Shown piece after piece: positions 7,295 to 62,446 of a DNA stretch of 64,000 bases. The position numbers and the translations under genes are program-made. Below the pieces are notes generated by a model that was given only the letters and a program-made list of their open reading frames with translations, was not told where the DNA came from and searched no databases. Numbering within the stretch: the stretch's first letter is position 1; every line of letters begins with the position of its first letter. The stretch is from NCBI RefSeq assembly GCF_057098645.1, contig NZ_CM169472.1. One strand, 5' to 3'.

Positions 7295-7921
7295 TCACCT
7301 TGCTCTAATAAACTTTGTAGGAGCCCCGGCCACTACTACATTGTCAGGAACATCACGAATAACTACAGAACCAGAACCAATAATTGATGAATTACCTATC
7401 TTTAGTTGCCCATTAACAACGGTACAACTTCCTATAAAGGATTTTTCCCCAACGAATACATCACCATTAAGAACAACATTAGTAGAGATATTTGTACAAT
7501 ATGATATATAATTCCCATGCTCTACTAATGCTCTTGTGTTTATCACCACTCCATCTTCTAGTTCTGAATCACAGTTAATGATAGCCATTTTCCCTATATA
7601 AATGCAGGTACCAAGCCTAGAATGTTCAGAAATTATAGATGTTCTGTCAATTACATTGATAGTTGAAAGTTTCATTTCTTCTATTAACTTCATCCATAAG
7701 GCTCTGTAATCGGGATCTCCAATTGCAATAAAGTATAGGTATTGGTTAGGTTCGTCTATGACACCTAAAGTATCACCTAAAATAGGGTATCCTTGATGCT
7801 CACCTGTTTTAAATGTATCAATGAACCCTTCTATTTCATACTTTTCATGATCCAAACTGTCAATTACAGTTTTAGCAAAACCACCAGCACCAATAATTAT
7901 TAATTTTTGCTTCATATTCAT
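7295..7921 (-). CDS. neuD: Hexapeptide-repeat acetyltransferase of the sialic-acid pathway, NeuD/NnaD
   Basis: 208 aa; N-terminal Rossmann-like KLIIIGAGGFAK then left-handed beta-helix hexapeptide repeats; first gene after the JUMPstart region. Confidence 0.8.
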   Translation of the reverse strand: MNMKQKLIIIGAGGFAKTVIDSLDHEKYEIEGFIDTFKTGEHQGYPILGDTLGVIDEPNQYLYFIAIGDPDYRALWMKLIEEMKLSTINVIDRTSIISEHSRLGTCIYIGKMAIINCDSELEDGVVINTRALVEHGNYISYCTNISTNVVLNGDVFVGEKSFIGSCTVVNGQLKIGNSSIIGSGSVVIRDVPDNVVVAGAPTKFIRAR

Positions 7922-7996
7922 ACCATCTAATGGTTTGATTAGATCACATTAACTTTGTTGTTACTTGTATTCATGACAACGATAATACATAAATAT

Positions 7997-8035
7997 CTCA
8001 AAAACACACGCTACCGCCCCTGGCTTTACAGCAAC
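7997..8035 (-). promoter_or_regulatory. JUMPstart element with ops (GGCGGTAGCGTG on minus strand at 8007-8018) upstream of the O-antigen operon
   Basis: Exact ops 12-mer read on the minus strand; flanking bases acacgctaccgcccctggcttt are shared with the wza upstream copy at 33061-33082. Confidence 0.85.
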
Positions 8036-8245
8036 CAGAGCACTATCTGAATAACAAAGTTATAACCTGCCTCACCAGCCATAGCAAAGCATTATAATTT
8101 CAACTCTCAATTGTCTTACTAAATACTGGCAGAAACAAGGAAAATCCGACAAAAAATCGGAGTAACATTTTTTACTTAGTGTAATAACCGCAGAGACGTT
8201 AGCTGGCGTTGTTCTTTCTAACATGTGACTGCTAATGCTCGAAAT

Positions 8246-9151
8246 CTACTTCTCTAGTAACATCTCAATACTTTTACGGAACTTCGTCCCTTCTTTCAGG
8301 TTGCGTAGCCCATACTTCACAAACGCCTGCATGTAGCCCATTTTTTTGCCGCAGTCGTAGCTGTCACCAGTCATCAGCATTGCATCAACAGACTGTTTTT
8401 TCGCCAGTTCAGCAATAGCATCAGTCAGTTGGATACGTCCCCATGCACCTGGCTGAGTGCGTTCAAGTTCCGGCCAAATATCGGCAGAAAGCACATAACG
8501 GCCCACGGCCATGATGTCTGAGTCCAGCGTCTGCGGCTGATCCGGTTTTTCGATAAATTCAACAATGCGGCTGACTTTACCTTCGCGATCCAGCGTTTCT
8601 TTGGTCTGAATAACAGAGTATTCAGAGAGGTCACCCGGCATACGTTTTGCCAGCACCAGGCTGCGGCCCGTTTCGTTGAAGCGCGCAATCATGGCTGCAA
8701 GGTTGTAACGCAGCGGGTCGGCGCTGGCGTCGTCGATCACAACGTCTGGCAGCACCACGACAAATGGATTGTCACCAATGGCGGGTCGTGCACATAAAAT
8801 GGAGTGGCCCAAACCTAAAGGTTCGCCCTGACGCACGTTCATAATTGTCACGCCTGGCGGGCAAATGGACTGTACTCCCGCCAGTAGTTGACGCTTCACG
8901 CGCTGCTCAAGGAGAGATTCTAATTCATAAGAGGTGTCGAAGTGGTTTTCGACCGCGTTCTTGGACGCGTGAGTTACCAGGAGGATCTCTTTGATCCCTG
9001 CAGCCACAATCTCGTCAACAATGTACTGAATCATTGGCTTGTCGACGATCGGTAGCATCTCTTTGGGAATCGCCTTAGTGGCAGGCAACATATGCATCCC
9101 AAGACCCGCTACAGGAATAACTGCTTTTAAATTCGTCATTATTTCATCCAC
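8246..9151 (-). CDS. galF: UTP--glucose-1-phosphate uridylyltransferase paralogue GalF
   Basis: 301 aa; [44 protein letters not shown] matches GalF/GalU family; conserved position between colanic-acid and O-antigen clusters. Confidence 0.93.
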
Positions 9152-9412
9152 CTGTAAAATGGTTGCTGAATTATAGCTTGTTCGATTTTTTTCGCCAGCA
9201 TCAATTACCCTGAATTGATTACTGAATTACTTGTGATGTTACGCCGCTTCGTTGTGGATTGCAGTAGCATTGTTCCTAAGTATGGCTCCATTTTTCCAGG
9301 AATGGTCGCAAATCTACTCCCTCCGTTCCGGCAATCTAAAGTTAATCTTTTCCACATTAACAATATGGTGATTAATCCTGTCGATATCGACGGAGCTTTG
9401 TCCTTTTTCATT

Positions 9413-9421
9413 CACCGCATG
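9413..9421. repeat. IS1 target-site duplication, left copy (caccgcatg)
   Basis: 9-bp direct repeat identical to 10190-10198, immediately flanking the IS1 ends. Confidence 0.9.
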
Positions 9422-9476: not shown

Positions 9477-9752
9477 GTGGCTTCTGTTTCTATCAGCTGT
9501 CCCTCCTGTTCAGCTACTGACGGGGTGGTGCGTAACGGCAAAAGCACTGCCGGACATCAGCGCTATCTCTGCTCTCACTGCCGTAAAACATGGCAACTGC
9601 AGTTCACTTACACCGCTTCTCAACCCGGTACGCACCAGAAAATCATTGATATGGCCATGAATGGCGTTGGATGCCGGGCAACCGCCCGCATTATGGGCGT
9701 TGGCCTCAACACGATTTTCCGCCATTTAAAAAACTCAGGCCGCAGTCGGTAA
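9477..9752 (+). CDS. insA: IS1 InsA (transposition inhibitor / N-terminal part of InsAB' transposase)
   Basis: 91 aa [43 protein letters not shown]... recognised as IS1 InsA. Confidence 0.95.
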
Positions 9753-31743: not shown

Positions 31744-32883
31744 TTACCAGTTATGAATGTCGCTGGCTGTATCCGTCATGTAACGGACACCGCTAATAGT
31801 TGGCAGCAACTGATTGATCAGACGGTTCCAGCGGGAAACCGGGGCGGTGGTGACATACACCACGTCATAAGGTTGCAGGCGGAATTCTGTCGCCATCACC
31901 AGCGACGTCGCATCGGACATATCCAGCTGGTAGATATTGGCAATCTTGCCATTACGCCCGCCCTCGCCTTTCAGCGGACGAATGACAAAGATGCCGCTGG
32001 CGTTGGAGGTGGTCATGTCGATGCCTTCAGCATTACCCAGGGCTTCAGTCAGGGTCATGCCGCTAAAGTCCATTTTCAGGGTGCTCTGTTTCTTCACTTC
32101 ACCCATCACAAATACTTTCAGATCATCATTACGCGGCACGTAGAGAATATCGCCGGGATAAAGCAGTCGGTTCTGATTGAGGTCGCCGTTTTGCATCAGC
32201 GCCTGCAAAGAAATGCGTTCTTCACGACCATTGTGTGTTAGCACCACGTTGCGCCAGTCAGCGGTGTCGGTCAGGCCACCTGCGGCGTTGATGGCGTCGA
32301 GAATAGTCAGTGGTACGTTGGTGATCGCCTGTTGACCGGATTTATTCACCTGACCTGAGATATAGGCCTTTTGTGAGCGGAAGGCGGCGATATTAACGTC
32401 CACCTGCGGGTCAGCGATGTACGTCGCTAAGCGCCCGGTAATATCACTGCGGATTTCAGCGAGCGTTTTCCCGACTACGTGAACCTTGCCGATATACGGG
32501 TAGAACATGGTGCCGTCAGGCTGTACCCAGTTGCCGGTGTCACTGGAGCTGCGGTACTGACCGGCTGGCGTGGTGAGTTCCGGGTGATCCCAGACGGTGA
32601 CATTAAGAACGTCCCCCGGCCCGACGCGATACTGGTAATTCGCGATCTCGCTTTCCAGCGTCATATTGGGGCGCGCTACGTTGGGTCGTGGACGTAATTG
32701 GTCAATCAGGCGCGGGGTCAACGGATAAACATTCACCATTTTGTCGAGATCGAAATCAGCGTCCTGCTGTTTGATGACGTCTTTGCCCATCGTCGACATA
32801 TTGCTGCCCGGAAGTACTGTGCAACCGCTTATCAAGGTTACTGACACCAATAATGGCATCAATTTCATTTTGGATTTCATCAT
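31744..32883 (-). CDS. wza: Outer-membrane polysaccharide export lipoprotein Wza
   Basis: 379 aa; lipoprotein signal (LISGC); conserved first gene of colanic-acid operon. Confidence 0.93.
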
Positions 32884-33051
32884 TGTTTATTTATCACTTT
32901 GGCAGAGTAATTATCCTGTGCACTATTAATAGCAATGTCGCCATGCACATTTACCTTGCAGTTAATTGAATACAAATTTAACTGGCATCAGTCCTAAAAA
33001 AATTGATTTCATCCGCAGGCTATTGACAGAATAATTCAGACTGGTCTTTCA

Positions 33052-33090
33052 GGCATCCAGACACGCTACCGCCCCTGGCTTTTTAGCTAC
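33052..33090 (-). promoter_or_regulatory. JUMPstart element with ops (GGCGGTAGCGTG on minus strand at 33062-33073) upstream of wza
   Basis: Exact ops 12-mer; about 180 bp upstream of the wza start. Confidence 0.85.
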
Positions 33091-33541
33091 CAATACACTG
33101 ATTTAGCTTAATTTTTCAAACCCTCTCTGCATACAATCGTTGATGAGAAAGGGTTATTGCGGAAATTAACTTCCGAATATAAGGTGACATTATGGTAATT
33201 GAATATTGGCTCTCCAATAATGCAGGAGGAAGTGTTACAGCTAACGGAATAGCAGGCAAGGTAACAATTCGGCAATTGGCTATTTTTAAGAATTATATTA
33301 AGTGTCATTCAATATGGTTTTTAGGAGTTTCTTTAGGTTGACAATATTTAATATTGCGTCTCCACATGCGATATTTCTTAAATAATGTTTTATTATTACC
33401 ACTTTTAATTCAGGGATAATGTGAGGTTATTACCCTCAAATAATATGAGATAAATAGTGCTGCAACATTGCATTTTTGCCCCGATTTATCCATGATCGAA
33501 TTGTGACATTTGTCATACAACGAATAGGTTTTGTACTTACT

Positions 33542-35125
33542 ATGGAATGGATTGCCGATCCGTCTATCTGGGCCGGGTTAATCACGCTGATTGTGATCGA
33601 ACTGGTCCTCGGCATTGATAACCTGGTCTTTATTGCCATCCTCGCCGAAAAACTACCGCCGAAGCAGCGCGACCGCGCACGGGTTACCGGGCTGCTGCTG
33701 GCGATGTTAATGCGCCTGTTACTGCTGGCGTCAATCTCCTGGCTGGTCACCCTGACTCAACCGCTGTTCAGCTTCCGCTCGTTTACCTTTAGCGCCCGCG
33801 ACTTAATCATGCTGTTTGGTGGTTTCTTCCTGTTGTTCAAAGCCACGATGGAGCTGAACGAACGGCTGGAAGGGAAAGACAGCAATAATCCCACACAACG
33901 CAAAGGTGCGAAGTTCTGGGGCGTGGTGACGCAAATTGTGGTACTGGACGCCATTTTCTCACTCGACTCAGTGATTACCGCCGTCGGGATGGTCGACCAT
34001 TTACTGGTCATGATGGCCGCCGTGGTTATCGCTATCAGCCTGATGTTGATGGCCAGCAAGCCGTTAACGCAATTTGTTAACAGTCACCCGACGATCGTTA
34101 TTCTCTGCTTAAGCTTCCTGTTGATGATTGGCTTTAGCCTGGTGGCAGAAGGTTTCGGCTTCGTCATTCCGAAAGGCTACCTGTACGCTGCCATTGGTTT
34201 CTCGGTGATGATCGAGGCGCTCAATCAGTTGGCTATCTTTAACCGGCGACGTTTTCTTTCCGCTAACCAGACGCTGCGCCAGCGGACTACCGAAGCGGTA
34301 ATGCGCCTGCTTAGCGGGCAAAAAGAAGATGCGGAACTGGACGCCGAAACCGCGTCCATGCTGGTGGATCATGGTAACCAGCAGATCTTTAATCCGCAGG
34401 AACGGCGGATGATTGAGCGGGTACTAAATCTTAACCAGCGTACCGTCAGCAGCATTATGACGTCGCGCCACGATATTGAGCATATCGATCTCAACGCGCC
34501 GGAAGACGAGATCCGCCAGTTGCTGGAGCGAAATCAGCATACGCGGCTGGTGGTTACCGACGGTGATGACGCAGAAGATTTGCTCGGTGTTGTTCACGTT
34601 ATCGACCTGCTACAACAGTCTCTGCGCGGCGAACCGCTCAACCTGCGGGTGTTGATTCGCCAGCCGCTGGTGTTCCCGGAAACCTTGCCGTTGTTACCTG
34701 CCCTGGAGCAGTTCCGTAATGCCCGCACGCACTTTGCTTTTGTGGTGGATGAGTTTGGCTCGGTGGAAGGGATTGTGACATTAAGTGACGTCACTGAAAC
34801 CATTGCCGGTAACTTACCGAACGAAGTGGAAGAGATCGACGCCCGCCATGATATTCAGAAGAATGCGGACGGTTCCTGGACGGCGAATGGTCATATGCCG
34901 CTGGAGGATCTGGTGCAATATGTGCCGCTGCCGCTGGATGAAAAACGTGAATATCACACCATTGCCGGGCTGTTGATGGAGTATTTGCAGCGTATTCCAA
35001 AACCTGGCGAAGAAGTTCAGGTGGGGGATTATTTGCTTAAAACGTTGCAGGTAGAAAGCCATCGCGTGCAGAAGGTGCAGATTATACCGCTGCGTAAGGA
35101 TGGCGAGATGGAGTACGAGGTGTGA
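33542..35125 (+). CDS. yegH: Inner-membrane protein YegH (TerC-like membrane domain plus CBS pair plus CorC/HlyC C-terminal domain)
   Basis: 527 aa from ATG 33542; track ORF begins 22 codons upstream. Confidence 0.85.
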
Positions 35126-48044: not shown

Positions 48045-48225
48045 AAGAAATCCTTTCTTAGAGAATTATTGAGGTCCGGTATCATACCGATTGCAATAAT
48101 GAAATAAGAGCAAACGAAGAAACTTTCAGAATTAGGCCCGGCGGCGCAGAAAATTTTGCTATTCGCCTCGCAAGAACGGAGAGCCGTCGATTGACACTAA
48201 GGGCGGAGTGACATAATTACAGGAG

Positions 48226-48376
48226 TGAGGGTTAGGGAGAAGTTTCCCCCTCCCCCTGGTGTTCTTAGTAAGCCTGGAAGCTAATCACTAAGAGTATCAC
48301 CAGTATGATGACGTGCTTCATCATAACCCTTTCCTTATTTAAAAGCCCTCTTCTCCGGGAGAGGGTTCCCCGTTTT
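48226..48376 (+). ncRNA. sibA: Sib antisense sRNA, copy 1 (sibA-like antitoxin RNA); ends approximate
   Basis: Sigma70-like promoter (TTGACA 48191-48196, 17-bp spacer, TAATTA 48214-48219); fully antisense to ibsA; hairpin 48346-48365 followed by a T-rich run. Confidence 0.7.
48265..48324 (-). CDS. ibsA: Type I toxin peptide IbsA (19 aa, MMKHVIILVILLVISFQAY)
   Basis: Translated directly from the minus strand; matches my recollection of K-12 IbsA (from memory, not searched); too short to appear in the ORF track. Confidence 0.85.
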   Translation of the reverse strand: MMKHVIILVILLVISFQAY

Positions 48377-48561
48377 AGCGTCCCGCTGAAATCGTCGGCT
48401 TACCTCCTTTCGCCCTGAATGCAGTCTATCGCTGACTTGCGGATAAAATAGTTTCAAGTGTGATTATTGCGTAACGACTCGCAAAGAATATTTGCTGGCA
48501 GGATCGCAGACTGCAAAGCCTGCAGATTGACAATCTTATCGTGAAGGCATACTTTCAGGAG

Positions 48562-48705
48562 TGAGGGTAGAGCGGGGTTTCCCCCGCCCTGGTAGTCTTA
48601 GTAAGCGGGGAAGCTTATGACTAAGAGCACCACGATGATGAGTAGCTTCATCATGACCCTTTCCTTATTTAAGGCCCCTTCCTCGGGAGGGGCTTTCCCG
48701 TTTCA
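48562..48705 (+). ncRNA. sibB: Sib antisense sRNA, copy 2 (sibB-like); ends approximate
   Basis: Promoter TTGACA 48527-48532 / TACTTT 48550-48555; antisense to ibsB; terminator hairpin about 48674-48693 then T-rich run. Confidence 0.7.
48598..48654 (-). CDS. ibsB: Type I toxin peptide IbsB (18 aa, MMKLLIIVVLLVISFPAY)
   Basis: Translated directly from the minus strand; matches my recollection of K-12 IbsB (from memory, not searched). Confidence 0.85.
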   Translation of the reverse strand: MMKLLIIVVLLVISFPAY

Positions 48706-48889
48706 GCGTCCCGCTGAAATCTTCGGCTTACCTCCTTTCGCCCTGTATGCAGTCTATCGCTGACTTGCGGATAAAATAGTTTCAAGTGTGATTATTGCGT
48801 AACGACTCGCAAAGAATATTTGCTGGCAGGATCGCAGACTGCAAAGCCTGCAGATTGACAATCTTATCGTGAAGGCATACTTTCAGGAG

Positions 48890-49033
48890 TGAGGGTAGAG
48901 CGGGGTTTCCCCCGCCCTGGTAGTCTTAGTATGCTGGGTAGCTAATCACTAAGAGCACCACGATGATGAGTATCTTCATCATGACCCTTTCCTTATTTAT
49001 GGCCCCTTCCTCGGGAGGGGCTTTCCCGTTTCA
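48890..49033 (+). ncRNA. Sib antisense sRNA, copy 3 (third tandem module); ends approximate
   Basis: Promoter TTGACA 48855-48860 / TACTTT 48878-48883, identical to copy 2; terminator hairpin about 49003-49022. Confidence 0.65.
48926..48982 (-). CDS. Ibs-family type I toxin peptide, third copy (18 aa, MMKILIIVVLLVISYPAY)
   Basis: Translated directly; differs from the copy-2 peptide at positions 4 and 15 (L to I, F to Y). Confidence 0.75.
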   Translation of the reverse strand: MMKILIIVVLLVISYPAY

Positions 49034-62274: not shown

Positions 62275-62358
62275 TTAATTTCGATTATTTTTCCCGGATG
62301 GAAAATTCTTAGAAACCGATCACATACAGCTGCATTTATTAAGGTTATCATCCGTTTC

Positions 62359-62446
62359 GCTGAAAAACATAACCCATAAAATGCTAGCTGTACCAGGAAC
62401 CACCTCCTTAGCCTGTGTAATCTCCCTTACACGGGCTTATTTTTTT
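62359..62446 (+). ncRNA. cyaR: CyaR (RyeE) Hfq-dependent sRNA
   Basis: gctgaaaaacataacccataaaatgctagctgtaccaggaaccacctccttagcctgtgtaatctcccttacacgggcttatttttt matches my recollection of CyaR (from memory, not searched); terminator hairpin plus T-run. Confidence 0.85.

Follow-up and report, generated by a model that had tools for sequence, protein, structure and literature searches.

JUMPstart/ops elements in the leaders of the O-antigen and colanic acid operons of Escherichia coli O145

The JUMPstart sequence was reportedly described by Hobbs and Reeves in 1994, and the JUMPstart/ops signal is said to have been described between 1994 and 1997. The ops part is the hallmark of the RfaH regulon (hly, tra, kps, waaQ/rfa, and rfb), whose members share the same 12-nucleotide (nt) non-template-strand signal in a 5' leader. 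These are long operons, horizontally acquired or devoted to the envelope, with first genes preceded by a weak Shine-Dalgarno (SD) sequence, and the two loci considered here do not differ from them in kind. Both the O-antigen and the colanic acid operons are listed members of this regulon in other E. coli strains. Recruitment of RfaH needs the 12-nt ops on the non-template strand of the leader (PMC5995543; PMC8745692). The element is present in the leaders of all RfaH-controlled operons, its residues G4, G5, A7, and G8 being essential for RfaH recruitment and T11-G12 driving the pause (PMC5995543). Once activated, RfaH keeps NusG out, counteracts Rho-dependent termination, and brings the 30S subunit to leaders devoid of an SD sequence (PMC5995543; PMC8745692). 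O-antigen (rfb) transcription requires RfaH via ops/JUMPstart, according to a report citing Wang et al. 1998 (PMC8745692). ChIP-seq in strain CFT073 locates RfaH at eight leader ops sites, including those of the O-antigen (wzx) operon and of wza-wcaM, and detects no RfaH binding at intragenic ops-like sites (PMC9765446). In work on E. coli O-antigen clusters, JUMPstart routinely serves as a primer site and as the 5' landmark (PMC4732683). Outside this family, Bacteroides UpxY and LoaP follow the same logic, a leader signal recruiting a NusG paralogue for the processive transcription of a long polysaccharide operon (PMC11213015). However, these proteins and their recognition signals differ from RfaH and ops, and the likeness is one of analogy only, not of membership.

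The stretch of DNA analyzed here, hereafter the window, is 64 kb long and comes from E. coli O145: over 2 kb around the O-antigen site it matches many O145:H28 genomes with 100% identity, and its first 36 kb are 99.94% identical to strain RM12761. According to the ORF list and the RefSeq annotation, the O-antigen leader is preceded by the conserved galF gene (8246-9139, minus strand), and the O145 cluster opens with an acetyltransferase gene (7295-7921, minus strand), the start of which is set at 7915 in RefSeq, with an in-frame ATG at 7921. The ensuing genes, also on the minus strand, are neuB, a cytidylyltransferase gene, neuC, wzx, wzy, and a gene cut at the window start. The same two sources place wza (31744-32883, minus strand) at the head of the colanic acid operon (wza ... 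wcaL, wcaM), which is roughly 20 kb long. The GC content of the O145 cluster is 27-34%, as against about 50% in its flanks, values of 27-34% being typical of H-NS/Rho-targeted DNA. In the colanic acid operon it is mostly 52-57%, with a dip to 43-45% at wcaD-wcaE. When 43 ORFs of the window are ranked by the weakness of their anti-SD duplex, wza (-1.6 kcal/mol) stands at the 91st percentile and the first O145 gene (-2.7 to -3.4 kcal/mol) at the 67th-79th percentile, the window median being -5.4 kcal/mol.

Several other features of the window were recorded. As compared with the known wza-wcaM operon, this lineage has its wcaM truncated at the distal end by an IS1 element, annotated as IS1B at 9477-10174 (plus strand). 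The wcaM remnant (10190-11485, minus strand) is a RefSeq pseudogene missing its C-terminus, with a small gene fragment left at 9314-9421; the CFT073 wcaM is intact. Within the colanic acid operon, the cpsB-cpsG spacer holds an algC RNA motif (Rfam RF02929; 18449-18498, minus strand; 78 bits for a cut-off of 33.8) immediately upstream of the phosphomannomutase gene. Further along, Sib antitoxin RNAs (Rfam RF00113, 141-145 bits) occur as a tandem set of three, at 48191-48339, 48527-48669, and 48855-48997 (plus strand), with Ibs toxins encoded opposite. Strain RM12761 has four ibs genes annotated at this locus, the fourth Sib being absent from the window; the Sib/Ibs copy number therefore varies between O145 strains, which shifts the downstream coordinates by about 326 nt. 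The CyaR sRNA (RF00112, 100.7 bits) lies at 62357-62442 (plus strand), just past yegQ, and is followed by P2-like prophage genes (ogrK and late control D) at the window end.

The ops 12-mer GGCGGTAGCGTG occurs in exactly two copies in the window, even when one mismatch is allowed, and both are on the minus strand. The first one (8007-8018) is an exact match located in the leader of the O145 O-antigen operon, and we take it to be an RNA polymerase pause and RfaH recognition site, read on the non-template strand. The second one (33062-33073), also exact, lies in the wza-wcaM (colanic acid) operon leader. An exact-match search thus agrees with the initial annotation, which had reported the 12-mer at these positions on the coding strand of both polysaccharide operons. 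Both sites are intergenic and on the sense (non-template) strand of their minus-strand operons; the distance from ops to the first start codon is 86-92 nt in the O-antigen leader and 179 nt, up to the ATG of wza, in the other. The ops consensus GGCGGTAGnnTG is fully matched in the two cases, including the central G4 G5 T6 A7 G8 and the T11-G12 pause dinucleotide. Rfam analysis reports the JUMPstart family RF01707 over model positions 1-38 out of 38 in each leader, delimited as a 39-nt O145 variant, TAGTGCTCTGGTTGCTGTAAAGCCAGGGGCGGTAGCGTG (8007-8045, minus strand; 52.6 bits), and as the 39-nt wza form, CAGTGTATTGGTAGCTAAAAAGCCAGGGGCGGTAGCGTG (33062-33100, minus strand; 57.3 bits), for a gathering cut-off of 35 bits. 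The common longer block that had been proposed around the 12-mers exists as well: acacgctaccgcccctggcttt is an exact 22-nt repeat, positions 8006-8027 being the same as 33061-33082.

Could such a pair arise by chance? The bare 8-mer GGCGGTAG is indeed common in the window, with 8 copies, 6 of them intragenic. However, an average of 0.31 copies of the 12-mer is expected by chance, two copies are reached in only 3 out of 100 shuffles, about 2e-4 exact 22-nt pairs are expected, the E-values of the two Rfam matches are 1.6e-10 and 3.6e-9, and both copies sit in leaders, on the sense strand. A coincidence is vanishingly improbable, and the statistics together with the conservation detailed below rule it out. 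As to the 8-mer itself, dinucleotide shuffles predict 1.35 copies and none out of 100 reaches 8, while shuffling of synonymous codons gives a mean of 4.1 and reaches 8 in 0.7% of the shuffles. The six extra copies, at 33653 (minus), 44543 (plus), 51935 (plus), 52445 (plus), 57745 (minus), and 62037 (plus), fall in yegH, yegD, mdtB (twice), mdtD, and yegQ. They were rejected as ops sites, all being intragenic, none having TG at positions 11-12, and two being on the template strand. These copies are probably not functional, and the excess of the 8-mer is explained only in part.

The two copies had been called near-identical, which is correct for the 22-nt core but not beyond it. The 39-nt elements share 32 out of 39 positions, and the 100 nt flanking each JUMPstart are 31-39% identical between the two leaders, which is the level of random sequences. 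Likewise, in the alignment of the two whole spacers that the initial annotation had suggested, JUMPstart aligns but the remainder stays at this random level. Near-identical intergenic regions are therefore ruled out, the two spacers being unrelated outside JUMPstart. The interval first assigned to the O-antigen site (7922-8245) is the entire spacer between galF and the first gene, of which JUMPstart proper covers only 8007-8045. The term antiterminator site also calls for a nuance: Rfam does identify a JUMPstart/ops, but ops is not itself an antiterminator structure: it is where the polymerase pauses and the antiterminator is loaded. With these adjustments, both sites are the textbook JUMPstart/ops signal, real, ordinary, and long known.

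In a different reading, the element acts mainly or additionally at the RNA level: the 5' half of JUMPstart would form a transcript stem-loop with an effect on elongation, stability, or translation that does not involve ops and RfaH. Both copies match the Rfam model, which includes a 5-bp stem (CUGGU...GCCAG) that can pair in each of them, and their single difference in a stem arm (C to U; UUGGU/GCCAG at wza) still pairs as G-U. Besides, conservation is 0.89-0.97 over the 27 nt that precede ops, more than the 12-nt ops requires, and a conserved stem-loop among JUMPstart elements has been reported by Weinberg et al. (PMC2864571). However, the folds hardly stand out from those of shuffled sequences (z = -1.1 for O145 and -0.03 for wza), the minimum-energy fold of the wza copy does not contain the Rfam stem, no two-sided compensatory changes occur among the sequences examined, and in the published mechanism recognition takes place on the non-template DNA (PMC5995543). 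We consider this RNA-level role improbable, and retain the loading of RfaH at ops as the preferred reading.

The O145 leader was aligned with six leaders of other serogroups, including those of K-12 and BL21 (O7), and, in a second alignment, with those of CFT073 (O6) and K-12. Its JUMPstart has the same position and strand as in the galF-to-O-antigen spacers of K-12 (rfbB), O7/BL21, and O6/CFT073. The resemblance extends to the 39-nt element ending in the ops 12-mer, to upstream promoter-like blocks, and to the end of the homology at ops. In contrast, the O145 leader carries two substitutions (C1T and A13T), misses ~55 nt of the galF-proximal spacer, and possesses a unique 85-nt leader after ops. 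Over the seven serogroup leaders, three conserved islands are observed at 8140-8131 (0.94), 8120-8111 (0.91), and 8040-8011, the latter being JUMPstart/ops (0.89-1.00), and the column identity is 1.00 throughout ops (8007-8018). In the second alignment, CFT073 shows the same blocks. The last base of ops is precisely where the serogroups cease to resemble one another, the similarity falling right after 8007 to 0.3-0.6 over the AT-rich, serogroup-specific 3' part of the leader that leads to the first start codon (7922-8006, minus strand), for which an Rfam scan did not return any match.

The two top conservation peaks outside JUMPstart correspond to a promoter-like pair, TTGTTT-17 nt-GACAAT (8110-8138, minus strand), which is also invariant in CFT073 and is not a strong consensus match. 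Judged by its conservation only, this pair is the likely O-antigen promoter. If we assume that it is, transcription would start near 8103 and ops would lie about 96 nt into the transcript. Promoter mapping of the O7 leader, attributed to Marolda and Valvano in 1998, reportedly gave a leader of 173 nt, which would fit this assignment. The O145 lineage also has a perfect TATAAT hexamer of its own (8091-8096, minus strand), 46 nt upstream of JUMPstart and without a good -35, where other serogroups have TTTTCG; to regard it as a possible alternative -10, from which transcription would start at about 8084, is speculative. Both candidates, the pair at 8138-8110 and the hexamer at 8096-8091, are upstream of JUMPstart. 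A generic sigma-70 promoter scan of the two leaders reports no more matches than in shuffled sequences, so that its hits are given no weight as evidence, and misses the TTGTTT-17 nt-GACAAT pair, a result that leaves room for promoters located downstream of ops, in which case the elements would be untranscribed and inert. Such an arrangement is highly unlikely: the conserved promoter-like blocks precede JUMPstart, the stretch following ops is serogroup-specific and devoid of any conserved promoter, and ops is no more than 86-92 nt away from the start codon of the first O145 gene. Moreover, in the O-antigen (wzx) operon of CFT073 the sigma-70 ChIP peaks coincide with predicted starts that precede ops, and at wza such peaks are found ahead of the gene (PMC9765446). 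We keep to leaders in which ops is probably transcribed.

On the galF side of the O145 leader, the terminator scan reports a hairpin, TCCGATTTTTTGTCGGA, followed by a U-rich run, UUUUCCUUGUUUC (8145-8161, minus strand), ~85 nt past the galF stop codon. Its fold (-7.4 kcal/mol, z = -3.2) is equalled by 1 out of 200 shuffles, and it is likely the galF intrinsic terminator. Directly next to this hairpin comes the conserved -35-like block of the putative O-antigen promoter, and the hairpin arms are not conserved in K-12-type leaders.

The two substitutions of the O145 JUMPstart, as compared with the common form, leave ops intact, and A13T breaks the upstream GGTAGC half-repeat (GGTTGC in O145). 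In the O7 leader, this upstream GGTAGC has reportedly been termed a second ops element. The O145 allele is found in 37 out of 5,426 complete genomes, and so is the full 324-nt spacer. Among the genomes listed, the carriers have sizes between 4.6 and 5.7 Mb, and their hosts are humans, cattle, dogs, ducks, and pigs. Since these carriers span very different genome sizes and hosts, the leader appears, from its distribution, to be inherited with the O145 cassette. This apparent mobility, along with the abrupt end of serogroup similarity at the last base of ops, is what would be expected if the O-antigen copy were a mere recombination junction, a homology anchor for cassette exchange that hitch-hikes without any regulatory role here. 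We give this possibility very little credit, because the same element is found on the same strand and at the same leader position before wza, within an otherwise unrelated spacer, because an invariant ops amid divergent flanks points to purifying selection, and because RfaH binding and function have been demonstrated at homologous leaders (PMC8745692; PMC9765446). A regulatory element that loads RfaH remains our preferred reading of the O-antigen copy. Regarding the allele, either the upstream repeat may be dispensable, provided that the O145 O-antigen is normal, or the O145 promoter may be shifted or stronger, with a quantitatively different RfaH dependence; we hold this proposal to be doubtful. 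The peculiarities of the O145 leader, namely its two substitutions, its shorter galF-proximal spacer, and its unique post-ops part, are ordinary allelic differences.

The wza leader is core-genome sequence. The 592 nt surrounding it are present in 4,818 out of 5,426 genomes, nearly all with at least 95% identity, and are 97.5-100% identical in 29 out of 30 genomes sampled down the ranking. It is orthologous to the leader of the K-12 and CFT073 wza (colanic acid, cps), from which nothing notable differs: between JUMPstart and the ATG, 236 out of 238 positions are identical to CFT073, JUMPstart itself being identical. In CFT073 (L010, 48192-49776), wza is annotated as frameshifted and wzb with an internal stop, although the leader is conserved to this extent. 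The segment between ops and the wza start codon (32884-33061, minus strand) has no recognisable SD sequence. A consensus search upstream of wza did not return any RcsAB box within 3 mismatches; by eye, the plus strand shows a 10/14 match immediately ahead of the region of the wza promoter. RefSeq also reports a 49-residue hypothetical protein opposite wza (about 33190-33340, plus strand), overlapping the presumed wza promoter region. It is annotated in many but not all genomes, and is probably a spurious call.

The initial annotation expected both operons to depend on RfaH, and this expectation is supported by the full ops/JUMPstart elements, by the homology with CFT073 and its ChIP data, and by the near-universal presence of rfaH. 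This gene lies outside the window and is found in 5,425 out of 5,426 complete E. coli genomes, including the O145 strain RM12522-C8, which carries an identical O145 leader. In the literature searched, no RfaH experiment on O145 was found, and in O145 itself the dependence would follow from homology. The colanic acid operon has a further level of control. In CFT073 grown in rich medium, wza-wcaM is silenced by H-NS, which acts on the promoter: both the sigma-70 peaks upstream of wza and the RfaH signal are observed only in a delta-hns delta-stpA background (PMC9765446). As a consequence, wza also needs promoter activation, and its RfaH dependence is visible only after it. The size of the RfaH effect on the colanic acid operon is uncertain, because most of the operon has a GC content of 52-57% and because binding in CFT073 was seen only after removal of H-NS and StpA.

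Taken as a whole, the two JUMPstart elements and their 3' ops very probably load RfaH in the leaders of both polysaccharide operons. According to this scheme, each JUMPstart, ending with the 12-nt ops, would lie within the transcribed and untranslated leader of a long polysaccharide operon, and the non-template strand would fold into a small hairpin recognised by autoinhibited RfaH. RfaH would then open and displace NusG on the polymerase, suppress pausing, Rho-dependent termination, and H-NS roadblocks, and help to bring the ribosome to a first gene without a good SD sequence. Through this loading and ribosome recruitment, the distal genes of the AT-rich O145 cluster and of the colanic acid operon would be expressed.

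The element and its mechanism are already known, and nothing new on the mechanism emerges from this analysis. Its value lies mainly in a correct annotation, which delimits on its 5' side the O-antigen cassette of O145, a major Shiga-toxin-producing serogroup, and identifies its regulatory leader as well as the leader of the colanic acid operon. The loss of rfaH would be predicted to lower both surface polysaccharides.
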